A stretch of DNA of 44,165 bases. Source: a virus. The stretch lies in UHGV virus genome UHGV-1352852; one strand, given 5' to 3'. The translations under genes were made by a program, and so were the position numbers. Shown here piece by piece: positions 3,499 through 36,969 of this stretch (position 1 is the first letter of the stretch; the number at the start of each line of letters is the position of its first letter). Under the pieces are notes generated by a model. That model was not told where the DNA came from, did not search any database, and saw only the letters and a list, made by a program, of their open reading frames with translations.

Positions 3499-3763
3499 CT
3501 TCTCTGCCCTCAAATATTCCGTCTAAGCCCATGATAACCTCGGCTTCGAACAAACTTATGCCGTAACCGGCGACATCACGAAACGCTACCAAATCTTGCC
3601 ATTTGAGCGCATCGCGCGGGATTATAACGATAGTATCATCTGTTTCGCGCTGTAGGAATTTAATGGCACGGTATTTCTCGAACACGTCGATAAGAGAAAC
3701 GGGGCATTCCGGCCCCGTCGCTTCTTTCATCTGCGGTTCTTTAATCACGCCCATTGCAATCAA
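3491..3763 (-). CDS. tail assembly chaperone, -1 frame ORF (T-like extension of the G/GT pair)
   Basis: Track ORF; its frame stays open upstream to ~3871 and overlaps the end of the 3853..4269 ORF in the -1 frame, the conserved siphovirus G/GT arrangement just upstream of the tape measure. Confidence 0.45.
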   Translation of the reverse strand: MIAMGVIKEPQMKEATGPECPVSLIDVFEKYRAIKFLQRETDDTIVIIPRDALKWQDLVAFRDVAGYGISLFEAEVIMGLDGIFEGREDG

Positions 3764-13785: not shown

Positions 13786-14247
13786 TCATTCTGGCTTAGT
13801 GACCTTCGCCGCTTTACTGAAGGCCTCTACGCCATCGGCATCGGTAACCTTGACGAAGTATTCACCGACTGCATTAACCGTCAGAGACAAAGCCTCTTCA
13901 GGTGCGTTTACCACTTCCTTACCGTCTTTGTACCAGGTCAGCACATATGGCGCTTTACCAGCCTTAACTTCGACAGTGAGAGTCGCGCTGCCGTCTGTCA
14001 GTTCGGTATCCTGCGGTTGCGCAGAGAAATACACGTCTCCAGCGTCTGCCAGATACGGAATCTCGTAAAGCATACCTGCGGTCGGTAGCGCAATACCAGT
14101 TTTATCTGCAAACGGCATATCGTCTACAGGTGTACCGAGTACACTTTCATCTTCAATAAATACCACGTTCTCACCGGAGCCAGACACACGGGCGTACTGG
14201 ACTACGCGACGCGACGGTACGTCAGTTACTTTGAAAAAGCCCATCAT
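13786..14247 (-). CDS. Ig-like domain structural protein
   Basis: Segment TLTVEVKAGKAPYVLTWYKDGKEV...GEYFVKVTDADG is Ig-like; downstream of the head-morphogenesis gene. Confidence 0.45.
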   Translation of the reverse strand: MMGFFKVTDVPSRRVVQYARVSGSGENVVFIEDESVLGTPVDDMPFADKTGIALPTAGMLYEIPYLADAGDVYFSAQPQDTELTDGSATLTVEVKAGKAPYVLTWYKDGKEVVNAPEEALSLTVNAVGEYFVKVTDADGVEAFSKAAKVTKPE

Positions 14248-16184
14248 TATTCCCCTTTCAGATAATCAGCAACACGTTTATCGAGTTCCGCCATCTGCTT
14301 AAGCGTGAGCGGACGCCCAAAACCATCTACAGATATTACGCGAAACTCCTCTGGTGATATACCGCTGTTACGGAAAATCTTACCGCGAACAGGGCCGAGC
14401 GCCTGGTCCTGAAACCATGCGGGCTGTTGTTTAAGGAACTCGTAGTAGGTTGTGTCCGCGCTTACCTGAGTACCGCCGTCCGCCCCGCGTGCCGCGCGTT
14501 TTGCGCCTTTATCAAGGAAGTCGAACTCCGAGCTAATCACCGGGGCCGTGGTACTTCTGCAATTCGGATGCGCTGGCGGCATCGGCCCTTTTCCAATTTC
14601 CCACGTCATTCCGTCTCTGGCCCTGCAATTCTTGACTATCGCACTACCTGCTGTATAATATCCTTGACTACTAGAGAGGGTATAAACATGGCACGTTCTA
14701 AACTCGACGCTTATGCGGATGATATTTGTTCTTTGTACCGAGATGGCACTCCCGCCAGCATCATAGCCAAGAATTACGGCGTCACTACCACCACGGTAAC
14801 AACATTTCTCAAGAAGCTCGGACTCATGCATGATCGACCCCGTGGTTGGGTTTCTAACGACACCATTTTGAATCAAAAAAGGGCTATAGAATTGTTCGAG
14901 TCCGGCGTCCCGCCTATTGAGTGCATAAGAAGGACCCAAGTAAGCAAAACAGTTTTCTATTCTATGGTCAAAACACTTGGCCTCGCTAAGCGCGGGCACA
15001 CTCACAGGACATTCACCCCGGAGGAGAAAATCGCCAGAGCTATCGTCCGACAGCAAAGCGGCGCTATGAATAAGACTGAAACCCTCGCTTTTGAATTGTT
15101 TAATTCCGCTGGCGTGGACGTAGTTCCGCAGTTTGCAATCGGCCCGTACAATGTCGATTTTGCCATTGAGTCCCACTCCATCGCCATAGAAATCTGTTGC
15201 CGCGGGACTCGTGCTTACCATTTTCCTGATGGGGAAATCAGCGAGCGTATTAAAAATATAATCCGCTCTGGCTGGCATGTTTATGTTCTTCACTGTTTCG
15301 AGCACAGTCACTTTGTCAACAGTGGTATACAAGACATGCTTAGTTGGATCGAGTTCATCAAGCGGAGTCCATCCGTATTGCGTGAGTACAGGGTGTTTCG
15401 GGGTGCCACTGAACTTCTCGCCGTTGGAAAGTTCGATGGTAAAGATTTTTCCTGAATAGAGTCCGCGCATTACCGCGTCCATCCCCGCGATGGGCGCTAA
15501 TTCTGTTTCAGCCGTGAAACACGTTGTACTGGTACGGCTGTCCAGCGTTGACACCCACTCGTATTTCTCGATGATGTCGTCGTTCTGGCGGTACGTCTCG
15601 TTACGGGCTTCGTTGGATACGTGAGCCAGCGCCGTACGTATTACGGTAGCGGCGTTACGCTCAGAGATGTCGGCCAGTCCGCCAGCGCCTACAACATTCT
15701 TAACAATCTGCCGTGTGGTTTGACCCTGAACAAAGCCCATCTTAACGCCAGTTACCAGGCGCGATACTTCTGTTTCACCCCAGCCACCCATCAGCTTAGT
15801 GAAATCTACTGGCTTGTCGCTTAACGACAGAGGCTGAAACTCGGCAGCGGCCCACACCTGTTCGGCAGTAGGCGTAACAAATTCAGCGTTGACGTTGGCC
15901 GTGAGTGTCTTTACATTCCACTCAGCCTCATACGCCGCCAGGTCCTTAAGGTCTTCTGTCAGCTTTGTTTGCCAGTCACCCGTAAGTCCTGTCAGTGCTT
16001 CTTCTAGGTCGCGTAACAATTTATTCAGTCGCGCAGTGCTTCGCCCGTCGTCACCGAATAACAGCACCTGCCGTTTGATTTCATCCCGCATCTCCTGAAT
16101 GAACGGTGTGAGGTCTTTCACTTCGCCGGATGCGGTGCGTTGCAGCCATATCTGGTGGCTGATTAGGGATGTAAGTAAGCTCAT
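14247..16184 (-). CDS. head morphogenesis protein (Mu F / SPP1 gp7-like), intein-containing
   Basis: Track ORF 14247..16241; ATG at 16184 (MSLLTSL) with GGAGGG RBS. C-terminal PPAHPNCRS motif typical of the Mu F family; central ~300-aa insertion with intein motifs. Confidence 0.7.
   Translation of the reverse strand: MSLLTSLISHQIWLQRTASGEVKDLTPFIQEMRDEIKRQVLLFGDDGRSTARLNKLLRDLEEALTGLTGDWQTKLTEDLKDLAAYEAEWNVKTLTANVNAEFVTPTAEQVWAAAEFQPLSLSDKPVDFTKLMGGWGETEVSRLVTGVKMGFVQGQTTRQIVKNVVGAGGLADISERNAATVIRTALAHVSNEARNETYRQNDDIIEKYEWVSTLDSRTSTTCFTAETELAPIAGMDAVMRGLYSGKIFTIELSNGEKFSGTPKHPVLTQYGWTPLDELDPTKHVLYTTVDKVTVLETVKNINMPARADYIFNTLADFPIRKMVSTSPAATDFYGDGVGLNGKIDIVRADCKLRNYVHASGIKQFKSEGFSLIHSAALLSDDSSGDFLLRGECPVSVPALSEAKCFDHRIENCFAYLGPSYALNRRDAGLEQFYSPFLIQNGVVRNPTTGSIMHESELLEKCCYRGGSDAVILGYDAGGSAISVQRTNIIRISVEFRTCHVYTLSSSQGYYTAGSAIVKNCRARDGMTWEIGKGPMPPAHPNCRSTTAPVISSEFDFLDKGAKRAARGADGGTQVSADTTYYEFLKQQPAWFQDQALGPVRGKIFRNSGISPEEFRVISVDGFGRPLTLKQMAELDKRVADYLKGE
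14632..14659 (+). promoter_or_regulatory. sigma70 promoter TTGACT-N16-TATAAT for the intein-embedded endonuclease gene
   Basis: Near-consensus -35 and -10 hexamers read directly; GAGAGGG RBS follows ~8 nt before the ATG at 14688. Confidence 0.55.
14688..15455 (+). CDS. homing endonuclease-like protein: two HTH motifs + Vsr-like (DUF559) PD-(D/E)XK nuclease domain
   Basis: Internal ATG of track ORF 14427..15455. HTH segments SIIAKNYGVTTTTVTTFLKKLGL and IECIRRTQVSKTVFYSMVKTLGL; C-terminal core YNVDFAIESHSIAIEI...GWHVYVL; encoded antisense within the intein. Confidence 0.6.
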   Translation: MARSKLDAYADDICSLYRDGTPASIIAKNYGVTTTTVTTFLKKLGLMHDRPRGWVSNDTILNQKRAIELFESGVPPIECIRRTQVSKTVFYSMVKTLGLAKRGHTHRTFTPEEKIARAIVRQQSGAMNKTETLAFELFNSAGVDVVPQFAIGPYNVDFAIESHSIAIEICCRGTRAYHFPDGEISERIKNIIRSGWHVYVLHCFEHSHFVNSGIQDMLSWIEFIKRSPSVLREYRVFRGATELLAVGKFDGKDFS

Positions 16185-16228
16185 ATGCCCTCCTGTAGTA
16201 TCGCCAGTGTAACGCATAAAAATAATAT

Positions 16229-16257
16229 TTGCAGACACCAATATAATAGGGTACTAT
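16229..16257 (+). promoter_or_regulatory. sigma70-like promoter TTGCAG-N17-TACTAT with embedded palindrome
   Basis: Third near-identical copy; leader shares TATCGAAACGAGA with the copy at 26613. Confidence 0.5.
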
Positions 16258-21580: not shown

Positions 21581-21611
21581 AAAAAAAAATCCCGGCTGGG
21601 TCAGGGCCGGG
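21581..21611 (-). terminator. strong rho-independent terminator after the lysis cassette
   Basis: Minus-strand hairpin CCCGGCCCTGACCCAGCCGGG followed by a run of nine T. Confidence 0.6.
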
Positions 21612-33164: not shown

Positions 33165-35336
33165 ATGAGTTACCTGTTCTTAGACTTTGAAACATTCTCC
33201 GAAGCCGATTTAAAGAAATTCGGCTCCTATGCTTACGCCGAACACCCGACTACCGAAGTGCTTATCTGTACCTATGCTTTTGATGACGAGCCTGTACAGG
33301 TATGGGATTGCACAGACGGCAGCGACATGCCGGGGGATTTGCACCGCGCACTGCGCCGTCTGGTTAAGCCAAACAGTCGCATTAAGATGGTGTGGCACAA
33401 TGGCTCAATGTTCGACAGGCTCGTCATGAAGCATTGCTGGGGCTTTGATATTCCGGTAAGCAACACTATCGATACGATGATTTGGGCGTTTCGTCACGCG
33501 CTGCCGGGTTCTCTTGATGCGCTGTGTGAAGTGCTTGGCGTGTCCGCAGACAACGCGAAAGACAAACGAGGCAAAGCGCTTATTCAGCGTTTTTCTAAAC
33601 CGACACCGAAGAACTACAAAATCCGCCGCTACACTGCTGAAACGCACCCGGATGAGTGGGCGCTGTTCATCAAGTACGCCGTGAGCGACATCACTGCGAT
33701 GCGTGAAGTCTTCCATAAGCTGCCGCGTTGGGGTAACTCCGAGTTCGAAGACCGTGTACTGGAACTTGACCAGTTAATCAACGACCGCGGATTTAAGGTT
33801 GACGTCGCACTGGCGGAAGCCGCGATTGAAGCCGTAGAGAAGCACAAGGCACAGTTACAGGAAGAAGCTCAACGTAAATATGGCGGCTCGCTTACCGGTA
33901 AAGACTTCCTTCCGATTCTGCGTGAACTTTCGCCCGCGCACCGCATACACAATGCACAGAAGTCGACGCTTAACGACCTGTTGGCAGATGATGATTTACC
34001 GGACGACGCCCGGATGATTATCGAAATGCGCCTCGGGGCCGCGTCAACAGCGTCAACGAAATATACCCCGCTGCTGCTGGGCCGCTCTTCGGACGACCGC
34101 CGACGCGGTTGCATACAGTATGGTGGAGCTAAGCGTACATTACGATTTGCCGGTAAAGGCTTCCAGCCGCAGAACCTGGCGCGCGGGTACTATCATGATG
34201 ATGAACTGGATAAAGGCATTTCTGCGTTACTTAAGGGCCGTGCGCACCGCCGATTTGACGTAGCCAAGCTAACGGCATCGACGGTTCGCAGTTGCATCAT
34301 ACCGGAAGCAGGGCATAAGTTTGTCGTCGCCGATTACTCTAACGTTGAGGGTCGCGGGCTTGCGTGGCTGGCGGGTGAAGACGATTTAATCGAAGTATTT
34401 GTAAACGGGGTTGATGTGTATAAGAAACTCGCATCAACGGTGTTCAATGTTGCATATGAAGCCGTAACAAAGGACCAAAGACAAATAGCCAAAGCAATGG
34501 TTCTGGGACTCGGCTACGCGGGGGGCGTCGGTGCTTTCGTCACGTTTGCTAAAAACTTAGGTCTTGATTTGAATGACATGACTAACACTTTAGACGGTAC
34601 ATTCCCGGACCATATTTGGGCCGCTACCGCACGCGGATACGAATGGGCGCGTATTCAGGAAGCCAAGCGACCACCACGTCCTGGTGAAAAAGATGACCGA
34701 CCCTCATATATCCTTGATAAGAAAGTTTGGCGCACCTGTGACGCTTTAAAGCGCATGTACCGGGAAGCTAATCCTGCAATAGTCCAATTCTGGCGCGATA
34801 TTGAAGACGCGGCTATGGCGGCTATCCGCAACCCAGGTAAAGAGTTCACCGCAGGGCCGCGTGGCGTTAAGTTTTCGCGCAACGTGGAGACAGATAACAA
34901 CGGCAACAAAGTCGCCGGTTGGTGGCTGCGCATGACGTTGCCGTCTGGTCGCGTTATGTCTTATCCAGGCGTCGGGTTGAGCGTGTCGAAAGAAACAGAC
35001 GAAGATGGAAAAGTGTCTACTAACGTGCGCATTAAGTACCAGGGCGAAAATCAGCTAACCCGTCAGTGGGGGTTCCAGTACACCTACTCGGGTAAACTGG
35101 TGGAAAACTGCACTCAGGCATTGTGCCGTGATTTGCTGGCTAATGCCCTGCTGAACGTAGAAGCAAACGGCTACCCGATTGTACTTCACGTACACGATGA
35201 GATTATCTGCGAGACACCAGATTCACCGGAATACAATGTAGCAGAGCTTGAGCGGTTGATGTGCGAATTGCCGGAATGGGCGGAGGGGTTCCCTCTTGTA
35301 GCAGAAGGTAGCGAAATGTACAGATACGCCAAGTAG
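33165..35336 (+). CDS. DNA polymerase I (family A) with 3'-5' exonuclease domain
   Basis: Exo motif LFLDFETFS; polymerase motif A DYSNVEGRGLAWLAGE, motif B QRQIAKAMVLGLGYAGG, motif C VLHVHDEIICE. Confidence 0.85.
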   Translation: MSYLFLDFETFSEADLKKFGSYAYAEHPTTEVLICTYAFDDEPVQVWDCTDGSDMPGDLHRALRRLVKPNSRIKMVWHNGSMFDRLVMKHCWGFDIPVSNTIDTMIWAFRHALPGSLDALCEVLGVSADNAKDKRGKALIQRFSKPTPKNYKIRRYTAETHPDEWALFIKYAVSDITAMREVFHKLPRWGNSEFEDRVLELDQLINDRGFKVDVALAEAAIEAVEKHKAQLQEEAQRKYGGSLTGKDFLPILRELSPAHRIHNAQKSTLNDLLADDDLPDDARMIIEMRLGAASTASTKYTPLLLGRSSDDRRRGCIQYGGAKRTLRFAGKGFQPQNLARGYYHDDELDKGISALLKGRAHRRFDVAKLTASTVRSCIIPEAGHKFVVADYSNVEGRGLAWLAGEDDLIEVFVNGVDVYKKLASTVFNVAYEAVTKDQRQIAKAMVLGLGYAGGVGAFVTFAKNLGLDLNDMTNTLDGTFPDHIWAATARGYEWARIQEAKRPPRPGEKDDRPSYILDKKVWRTCDALKRMYREANPAIVQFWRDIEDAAMAAIRNPGKEFTAGPRGVKFSRNVETDNNGNKVAGWWLRMTLPSGRVMSYPGVGLSVSKETDEDGKVSTNVRIKYQGENQLTRQWGFQYTYSGKLVENCTQALCRDLLANALLNVEANGYPIVLHVHDEIICETPDSPEYNVAELERLMCELPEWAEGFPLVAEGSEMYRYAK

Positions 35337-35414
35337 TAGATTTAGGAAATACGTTGTAGAAAATGTAAATACCGATATAATGGCTATGTCGGTATTTTTT
35401 TTTTGGAGTTATTA

Positions 35415-36110
35415 ATGAAAAAGTGTTCAAGATGCGGCGAAGATAAACCGGCGACTACAGAGTATTTTTCAAAGTCAACGCGCCTCGGGCTGCAACGCTG
35501 GTGTAAAGAGTGTGTAAATGCTAACAGGAAGGAAAAGTATGACGAAAAACTTAAATTACAAGGTAAATCCAGACGAGAAAGCCCTTGGTATGTTTTCACT
35601 GGGAAGCCTGTTAAATGCAGAAAGTGTGGGGAGGTAAAACCTTTAACAGAGGAAAACTTCAGGAAAGGAAATAAAAGTAATGGCTCTCATATCAGGAAAG
35701 ATTGCCGGGAGTGTCTCAACAAGCAACGCAGGGAACTGGTGAATAAGGACCAAAGGACGCGGGCGTACGCGCTTTTGTTAGGATACAAAAGAGCAGATTC
35801 AGGAAAAGGGCTTATCTGCGATTTAACACTGGAAAGCGTTATTAAACTAATATCACAGCCATGCCATTATTGCGGAAGCACTACAAAAGTCGGGGTAGAC
35901 CGCATAGATAATACAAGCGGGCACATAGTATCTAACTGCGTTTCTTGTTGTCAGACATGTAATCTTACCAGAGGACACCGGTTTACATTCATTGAAATGG
36001 TCACGGAGATAGGTCCCGCCATTAAAAGAATAAAAGCGGCGAGAGAAGTTTCACATATACCGTCTTTTCCTAATAGGTGGCCTGAAGGAGAATGTAGAGA
36101 TGCCAAGTAA
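35415..36110 (+). CDS. HNH homing endonuclease with N-terminal zinc-ribbon repeats
   Basis: Internal ATG of track ORF 35403..36110; repeated CxxC (CSRCG, CKEC, CRKCG, CREC) and HNH core CHYCG...VDRIDN...H...CVSCCQTCN; GGAG RBS. Confidence 0.7.
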   Translation: MKKCSRCGEDKPATTEYFSKSTRLGLQRWCKECVNANRKEKYDEKLKLQGKSRRESPWYVFTGKPVKCRKCGEVKPLTEENFRKGNKSNGSHIRKDCRECLNKQRRELVNKDQRTRAYALLLGYKRADSGKGLICDLTLESVIKLISQPCHYCGSTTKVGVDRIDNTSGHIVSNCVSCCQTCNLTRGHRFTFIEMVTEIGPAIKRIKAAREVSHIPSFPNRWPEGECRDAK

Positions 36111-36462
36111 ACTGATTATCGCGGTACTGGCGGGATTTGCTGCCGGTGTCTACTGTCACGAGGGTCAATACGGCATGATGGTTGCCATATTGGGCATGTT
36201 CATCGCAATTTATCTGTGGGTGCTGGAATGAAAATCTACTGGTTTTATGAAGAAGACTGTCGAATCTGTCCGCGCTGCGGTACTGAACATACGAAACGTG
36301 AGGGGTGTGTATTATGACAAAGTTTGTATTTTGGACCATAGTAACCATGCTCGCACTGTTACTCGGCGCGGGAATAGCTGCGATGTTCTGTTACGGCCTG
36401 TTCTTTAAGTTTGTTGGCGTTGCCGTTCTGGGCGGGGCATTTATAACTTGGGTTCTGCGCTC

Positions 36463-36777: not shown

Positions 36778-36969
36778 ATGAAATACGAATATGACCGTAA
36801 ACCAGCACGTGACATCGTACCTGGCGACATGATTTTCAACGTTAAGACCCGCCAGCCTGTTGCCGTTGATACGGTGTTCGTCGAGTCAAACGGTAAACTG
36901 GTTATCGAAGATGTAACAGGCAATGTTACAGCGTTCGGGCGTAAAGAGTTAGTTCTGGTGGCAAAATGA
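36778..36969 (+). CDS. hypothetical protein
   Basis: 63-aa track ORF; stop overlaps the helicase start. Confidence 0.4.
   Translation: MKYEYDRKPARDIVPGDMIFNVKTRQPVAVDTVFVESNGKLVIEDVTGNVTAFGRKELVLVAK

Follow-up and report, generated by a model that had tools for sequence, protein, structure and literature searches.

The segment described here spans positions 35337-36110 of the virus genome UHGV-1352852, whose whole stretch of 44,165 nucleotides (nt) was analysed and is referred to as the window. It lies directly after the gene of a family A DNA polymerase (polA), and it contains a free-standing open reading frame (ORF) of 231 amino acids (aa) for a nuclease of the PacI-like His-Me finger type, preceded by a leader of 78 nt with promoter-like boxes, a hairpin and a run of ten T; the coordinates of all these features are given in Table 1. 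As for its origin, the window comes from a new E. coli Kagunavirus (Guernseyvirinae), and its nearest relatives are Bas72, KMB35 and Bas74, with about 91% identity over about 77% of the half-genome that was queried.

Insertion site and distribution of the cassette

In most relatives the site is empty and the junction is of type A, in which the stop codon of the polymerase gene and the ATG of a 43-aa gene overlap (...CGCTATGCTAAGTAAACTG). A second form, type B, occurs in the Ro145 phages (e.g., Ro145c2YLVW), where the polymerase ends in SEMYRYAK and its stop is followed by 12 nt and then by ATGCTAAGTAAACTG. The last eight polymerase codons read SEMYRYAK in the carriers of the cassette as well, whereas they read QELKRYAK in type A, the common form of empty site; in the window, the polymerase ORF stops at the TAG in 35334-35336, with a second TAG directly after it. 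By comparison with type B, the inserted DNA takes the exact place of the 12-nt spacer; by comparison with type A, 35308-36099 stands in place of 16 nt. On the other side, the 3' end of the nuclease ORF runs into the residual GATGCCAAGTAA, rebuilding for the 43-aa gene the same kind of stop/ATG overlap that the polymerase stop provides in type A.

Regarding its distribution, the 774-bp segment was found in four related records (Bas72, Bas73, Bas74 and KMB35) out of 442, with 99.5-99.7% identity to the window, and the IMG/VR contig L017 is a further carrier that encodes an identical protein. The cassette is 99.6-100% identical among carriers, against 89-95% in their flanks: in a sliding comparison, the identity of the flanks drops to about 90% within 35-200 bp of the segment, and the cassette was found on at least three distinct left-flank haplotypes. 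Its position is fixed and intergenic, and there is no intron or intein around the gene.

The extent of the exchanged DNA can be read from a near-isogenic pair, Bas72 (occupied) and DUEC01 (empty). The two are identical over 34896-35302; beyond 35302 they differ by one substitution at 35303, by the insert, and by nine substitutions within 36104-36287, and in Bas72 all nine correspond to the allele common to the carriers. Identity is complete again after 36287, up to about 36963. The conversion tract in this pair is 35303-36287, reaching about 35 nt to the left of the insert and about 190 nt to its right. The insert also differs in composition from the rest of the genome: its GC content is 41.5%, against 50.4% for the genome, a value within the lowest 1.3% of equal-sized windows, and its GC content at third codon positions (GC3) is 40.7%, against 56-63% in the neighbouring genes.

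The initial annotation, made from the sequence alone, had taken the gene for a free-standing endonuclease gene of the mobile type and had proposed its comparison with genomes lacking the insertion. This comparison has been run and bears the claim out: both types of empty site and the near-isogenic pair were recovered, the gene is not in all relatives, and the insertion signature consists of the presence in four of 442 records, an identity of at least 99.5% in the cassette against about 90% in the flanks, a foreign composition, the empty sites and the co-conversion tract. The same annotation had counted the VRR-NUC gene among those of mobile type, and here it did not hold; VRR-NUC is annotated in all relatives examined but one, which has hypothetical proteins at the locus, and it looks like a core gene.

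Two other explanations of the junction were considered and rejected. The GCCAAGTA repeat that flanks the insert suggested a target-site duplication, a candidate that was discarded because Ro145c2YLVW already has this duplication at its type B empty site, so that the insertion did not create it. The second was a recoded polymerase end carried by the cassette; SEMYRYAK, however, is present in cassette-less genomes too (XY2 and the Ro145 phages), and homologous cassettes elsewhere come after QEL[FKS]RYAK polymerase ends, so that SEMYRYAK is an allele of the site, and not a proven immunity change.

The junction has received at least one other gene: in XY2 (L030 1555-2052), it is occupied by a canonical HNH_3 gene not related to the nuclease of the window (PF13392, with a score above the Pfam cut-off), which makes the polA/43-aa-gene junction a hot spot of free-standing endonuclease genes. 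This junction was seen in at least four allelic states, including the HNH_3 gene of XY2 and the 12-nt type B spacer of Ro145c2YLVW (L031 1530-1560).

The nuclease and its family

The 231-aa ORF has the four CxxC pairs reported in the initial annotation, namely C4/C7, C30/C33, C68/C71 and C97/C100, and they are organized as two N-terminal repeats, probably two Cys4 ribbons for DNA recognition; two further pairs, C150/C153 and C179/C182, flank the catalytic core, a putative Zn-braced site. The AlphaFold2 (AF2) model of the protein, with a predicted local distance difference test (pLDDT) score of 91.6, has the beta-beta-alpha-metal fold of the His-Me finger nucleases, with the putative metal-binding Asn on the helix. 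The consensus of the family is PCxYCG-x5-GxDRIDNxxGHxxxNxVPCCxxCNxxR, and ten residues are near-invariant in 81 of its members: D162, R163, D165, N166, G169, H170, N174, C179, C182 and N183. The cysteines that would bind zinc are near-invariant in these members too.

The core had been initially described as HNH, and this is correct as far as its beta-beta-alpha-metal fold is concerned, but it is not a canonical HNH: where the DH motif has its general-base His, at the end of strand 1, the protein has R163 (DRIDN..GH), with Arg near-invariant in the 81 members, and no HNH model of Pfam matches it. The variant is that of PacI. The family profile matched PacI with E = 4.4e-11, the structural and profile similarity covers the catalytic domain, and D162, R163 and N183 align to the D-R...C-N motif of PacI. 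PacI itself has no canonical His, and it uses a Tyr in a loop instead, with the metal held by Asp and Asn (PMC5714182, PMC4081073). The position of this catalytic Tyr, in the loop between the two strands, is occupied by H170 in the protein of the window (GH, not GY); from this alignment, D162 and N183 would act as metal ligands, and H170 may be the general base that activates water. Overall, the protein looks like PacI with a duplicated N-terminal ribbon.

As for the databases, the search of the protein against Pfam gave no significant match, including all the HNH models and Endonuclease_7, and NCBIfam gave no match; four of the 81 sampled family members touch PF01844, with a best E of 3.6e-4, and the best PHROG match is phrog_1035, "endonuclease VII" (E = 1.3e-29). 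A word-indexed search returned only five homologous proteins, and it was the exhaustive HMMER search that revealed the family, with 15,719 representative clusters at E <= 1e-3. This PacI-like "DRxDN..GH" clade, which counts about 15,700 clusters at 50% identity and has the loop His in place of the PacI Tyr, is very large, but neither Pfam nor NCBIfam covers it. For this gene, the labels "endonuclease VII" and "restriction endonuclease" are probably wrong. A PacI-like branch was recently recognised among the free-standing HNH genes of the phages of the Lactococcus genus Skunavirus (PMC12724721).

Homologues of the nuclease occupy the same position in other phages. Those with 60-64% identity lie directly after polA in the syntenic metagenomic contigs L013, L014, L018, L027 and L028, which form a third, Guernseyvirinae-like clade; its nearest cultured relatives, Cornellvirus-like Salmonella phages, are devoid of the gene. 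The homologues of Dhillonvirus, with about 49% identity, are located between polA, which they follow directly, and VRR-NUC, and they were found in 26 of 158 related records. Between the homologues of different lineages, the proportion of synonymous differences (pS) is 0.73-0.95, that is, saturated, against 0.10-0.37 for the nonsynonymous ones (pN); hence, the protein is under purifying selection.

The leader of the nuclease gene

The order of the elements in the leader is the same in all the homologues with 60-64% identity: the stop codon(s) are followed by AAATRCGTTGYWG, 16-17 nt, a -10 box within a hairpin, a T-rich tail and the Shine-Dalgarno. The -10 position is TATAAT, TATAGT or TATTGT in the homologous cassettes, at a spacing of 16-17 nt. 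The ORFs of these cassettes are saturated at the synonymous sites, and yet both boxes and the distance between them are conserved, which argues that the -35-like block and the -10 are under functional constraint. The arrangement was kept in at least two lineages through this divergence, and a simpler form exists in Dhillonvirus, with a shorter leader made of a hairpin and then T's. The leader belongs to the mobile element.

Both elements described in the initial annotation exist. The run of about ten T just before the ribosome binding site (RBS) is as it had been reported; the TATAAT is part of a conserved -35-like/-10 pair, but it is embedded in the hairpin, which includes it together with the first T's and was called terminator-like by the pattern scan. 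The T10 is the longest homopolymer of the window, where the only other run of at least eight is an A9 at 21581-21589.

The hairpin folds in six of six cassettes, with z from -2.4 to -7.3, and four of its nine core pairs have compensatory double changes across the cassettes, with none broken; core pairs were counted from individual folds anchored on the -10, because MAFFT misaligns the 3' arms, and the anchors of L014 and L027 are offset. The T-rich tail is 0-3 nt from the stem's base in all copies, and it consists of T7, T9, T10 or TTTTCTTTGT in the homologous cassettes. Since this tail is always directly 3' of the hairpin, the T10 resembles the U-tract of a terminator, and it is most likely the tail of a transcription terminator. 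The phage's own terminator-like sites are GC-rich with tetraloops, and the AT-rich stem of the leader fits a foreign origin.

An alternative, which we consider unlikely, is that the hairpin is not a terminator but an element for RNA stability, processing or translational control, with the T-run as an unstructured spacer before the Shine-Dalgarno. The AT-rich stem with its three G-C pairs, unlike the genome's own terminators, speaks for it, as do the weak and interrupted T tails of L014 and L027; moreover, a stable hairpin just upstream of an unsequestered RBS has been described for seg43(25), and its function is still open (PMC2988022). However, the T-rich tail stays next to the stem base in every copy, the copy of the window has the longest stem and the purest T tail among the terminator-like sites of the 44 kb, and the Shine-Dalgarno is not covered by the hairpin.

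Two further observations concern the leader. Its conserved block, (G)TAAATRCGTTG, reaches well upstream of the -35-like TTG in the window and in L013, L014, L018, L027, L028 and L029, and the CGTTG core is kept even in the Dhillonvirus leader, which exceeds what a -35 hexamer needs; the block may be a protein-binding site, and the search for a second copy of GTAAATACGTTGTAG gave nothing significant in the window or in Bas76. In L018, the homologous nuclease gene is directly followed by another promoter-like element (3690-3745), TTGACT-17-TATCTT, which overlaps a hairpin (TTAGCGATG...CATCGCTTAA), and the promoter-in-hairpin arrangement may be recurrent in the phage clade of L018.

Table 1. Position of the genes and of the sequence elements at the junction downstream of polA in the window
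Feature	Coordinates	Strand	Basis or remark
Family A DNA polymerase gene, 723 aa	33165-35336	+	ORF list; DNA polymerase annotation in all relatives; cassette abuts its 3' end
Inserted cassette, 763 nt	35337-36099	+	Takes the exact place of the 12-nt spacer GAGGTGGTTCTA seen in type B empty sites (Ro145c2YLVW)
Conserved leader block GGAAATACGTTGTAG with -35-like hexamer TTGTAG (35354-35359)	35345-35359	+	Nearly invariant in six cassettes
AT-rich hairpin of 13 bp with 5-nt loop; stem of the terminator-like element	35367-35397	+	Free energy (dG) about -14 kcal/mol, z = -3.6; pattern scan
-10-like hexamer TATAAT, 16 nt after TTGTAG, in the 5' arm of the hairpin	35376-35381	+	Homologous cassettes
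T10 run, read as a terminator-like U-tract	35395-35404	+	T9 in four copies, T11 in one copy
Shine-Dalgarno GGAG, 6 nt before the ATG	35405-35408	+	Sequence
PacI-like His-Me finger nuclease ORF, 231 aa	35415-36110	+	ATG 35415, TAA 36108-36110
Zinc-ribbon repeat 1 (C4, C7, C30, C33)	35424-35513	+	Weak alignment to the PacI N-terminal Cys4 ribbon; pLDDT >94
Zinc-ribbon repeat 2 (C68, C71, C97, C100)	35616-35714	+	Cysteines near-invariant in the family
Beta-beta-alpha-metal catalytic core CHYCG..VDRIDNTSGH..N..CCQTCNLTRG	35862-35972	+	Family alignment, comparison with the PacI profile
Downstream 43-aa core gene	36100-36231	+	Start codon ATG at 36100, in overlap with the final codons of the nuclease ORF (GATGCCAAGTAA)

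Interpretation and comparison with known systems

The segment is likely a cassette with a free-standing homing-endonuclease gene; it would have spread recently through Kagunavirus phages, and it is endowed with a PacI-like enzyme and a self-contained leader. During a mixed infection, the enzyme would cut the cassette-less genomes near the 3' end of polA, and recombinational repair would then copy the cassette and short flanks into the cut genomes. As for its expression, the hairpin and the T10 would terminate the read-through from polA, while the putative sigma-70-like promoter TTGTAG-16-TATAAT embedded in the hairpin is predicted to start transcription about 7 nt after the -10, in the 3' arm; because the start falls in this arm, these transcripts would be unable to form the hairpin, so that the nuclease would be expressed and, through the rebuilt ATG overlap, the downstream genes as well. 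A terminator with an embedded promoter may thus be a portable expression module, that is, the way in which a selfish gene enters an operon while the genes downstream stay expressed. It is proposed more tentatively, and with less than even confidence, that the cassette is a self-contained and insulated transcription unit of this kind, and that its nuclease belongs to a very large PacI-like clade, possibly a major family of phage homing endonucleases.

Several points weigh against homing and against the working of the leader as outlined. The homing reading is built on sequence comparison and on a fold model, and the role assigned to H170 comes from its alignment to the PacI Tyr, the canonical catalytic His being absent. 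These phages are heavily mosaic, and ordinary homologous recombination could move the cassette without the nuclease; in addition, the five carriers may represent only two or three transfer events. In the leader, the hairpin has few G-C pairs compared with the GC-rich terminators of the phage, and the TATAAT agrees with the consensus at six positions of six, but the TTGTAG only at three of six, with a 16-nt spacer, and the promoter scan made no call. Operator mimicry in the style of I-TevI was also considered and rejected, because the local alignment of the leader with the type A and type B empty junctions was no better than that of shuffles. Finally, one PacI-like HNH enzyme of Skunavirus was tested, and it is not among the enzymes for which strong exclusion of the assayed phage was reported (PMC12724721).

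This last point, together with the pervasive mosaic recombination in the region of the cassette, is in line with a different view, for which we see a small chance: an accessory nuclease, active in the degradation of host or competitor DNA, or an orphan PacI-like restriction enzyme, carried passively by general recombination with no self-transfer. PacI itself is a restriction enzyme, and its giant-virus homologues were proposed as viral "restrictases" (PMC5714182). On the other hand, three diverged lineages, with 49-100% identity, hold the post-polA position across genera, which fits a site-specific element over a random moron; this junction has also been taken by an unrelated HNH_3 gene; the conversion tract is narrowly focused on the insert; and the two extra zinc ribbons suggest a target longer than a restriction site.

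Less probable still is the idea, put forward in the initial annotation, that the T10 acts through slippage or phase variation to switch or tune the expression of the nuclease. The length of the run does vary, with T9 in Bas72, Bas73, Bas74 and L017 and T11 in KMB35, against T10 in the window, and this is the sole indel in the otherwise identical leader of the carriers; L018 and L028 differ likewise, with T9 and T10, respectively. In addition, T11 puts in frame an upstream ATG, equivalent to 35380, and KMB35 is annotated in this way. Yet the tract comes after the -10, separates a conserved hairpin from the Shine-Dalgarno and is outside the 231-aa ORF; regulatory slippage is unsupported because the length of the run leaves this reading frame unchanged, and the promoter spacing is unaffected as well. 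The upstream ATG lacks a Shine-Dalgarno and is located in the hairpin loop, the tail of other cassettes is T7 or the interrupted TTTTCTTTGT and still abuts the hairpin, and differences in homopolymer length from one assembly to another can be sequencing errors. In KMB35, the annotated coding sequence (L003 3044-3775) exceeds that of the other carriers by 12 codons, probably as an annotation artefact of the ATG framed by T11.

The weakest alternative, an endonuclease VII-type junction resolvase for housekeeping DNA processing, finds support in the best PHROG match and in the same name used in the GenBank records of Bas72-74, but it is hardly credible for a protein that lacks the model match and the fold of Endonuclease_7 and any other Pfam match, and for a gene missing from about 99% of the relatives, which already encode the VRR-NUC resolvase.

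Other parts of the window vary among relatives as well. Within polA, the patch 34350-34900 has 55-80% identity to KMB35, Bas72-74, Bas70 and K1H, against 99-100% to DUEC01, JSSK01 and XY1; it is a sharp mosaic block inside an essential gene, and for some relatives the annotation gives polymerases with an intein. Between polA and VRR-NUC, the set of tiny ORFs varies: a stretch of about 100 nt with one small ORF (36310-36420) is present in the window, Bas73, Bas74, Bas76, XY1, Bas70, K1H and Snoke, and missing from KMB35, Bas72, DUEC01 and JSSK01. At 36963-36969, the window is devoid of a DNA cytosine methyltransferase gene of about 0.8 kb that most relatives have between a 63-aa ORF and the helicase; XY1 and Snoke are likewise without it, making it another presence/absence gene of the module. 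Far from this region, the 664-aa ORF at 14247-16241 (minus strand) has a Phage_Mu_F head-protein domain and a weak match to Intein_splicing (E = 4.5e-4, which does not reach the Pfam cut-off), and it is probably the intein host named in the initial annotation.

In conclusion, the cassette is a well-supported but ordinary case of homing endonuclease, and the current understanding of these enzymes is unchanged. It should be noted that homing by a PacI-like phage nuclease is directly testable here, because Bas72 (occupied) and a DUEC01-like phage (empty) form a near-isogenic pair and the type A and type B empty junctions are defined; the phages in the BASEL collection can be obtained publicly.

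Among the known systems, R.PacI (PDB 3ldy/3m7k, His-Me finger group 20) shares with this protein the motif G-x-D-R-x-D...G-[Y/H]...N...C-x-x-C-N-x-x-[K/R], a beta-beta-alpha-metal core braced by Cys4, an N-terminal CxxC...CxxC ribbon and the Arg in place of the canonical His. The differences are the Tyr, used by R.PacI as base or nucleophile, against the invariant His of the phage family, and the number of N-terminal ribbons, one against two; besides, R.PacI is a homodimeric bacterial restriction enzyme with an 8-bp site, whereas the gene of the window occurs sporadically in phages and bears an insertion signature. The PacI-like HNH genes of the Lactococcus Skunavirus phages, like this gene, are phage-encoded, free-standing, variably present at one insertion location and interpreted as homing endonucleases (PMC12724721); this likeness is by description, and they differ in the host, in the phage group and in the location, which is the morphogenesis module and not the post-polA position.

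The free-standing genes of the T-even phages (mobE, segB, segG, and the regulation of I-TevI) are similar to the cassette because they are placed between conserved genes, their flanking markers are co-converted and the downstream expression is preserved; the homing endonuclease genes of the T4 type are controlled by intrinsic terminators and by promoters whose location keeps an inhibitory hairpin out of the transcripts (PMC2988022). However, the T-even enzymes are canonical HNH or GIY-YIG, unlike the PacI-like enzyme found here; their hairpins usually sequester the RBS, whereas that of the cassette precedes it and carries a U-tract, and their promoters are T4 middle or late, whereas the promoter-like element of the cassette is sigma-70-like.

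In T3 and T7, the gene 5.3 product is encoded by a free-standing gene just downstream of gene 5. I-HmuI, I-HmuII, I-BasI, I-TslI and I-PfoP3I (PMC3428280) are, like this nuclease, of the HNH superfamily and tied to the family A polymerase gene of a phage; most of these polymerase-targeting enzymes are intron-encoded inside the gene and have the canonical DH...N...H/N, whereas the gene described here is free-standing at the 3' end of polA and its enzyme is PacI-like.

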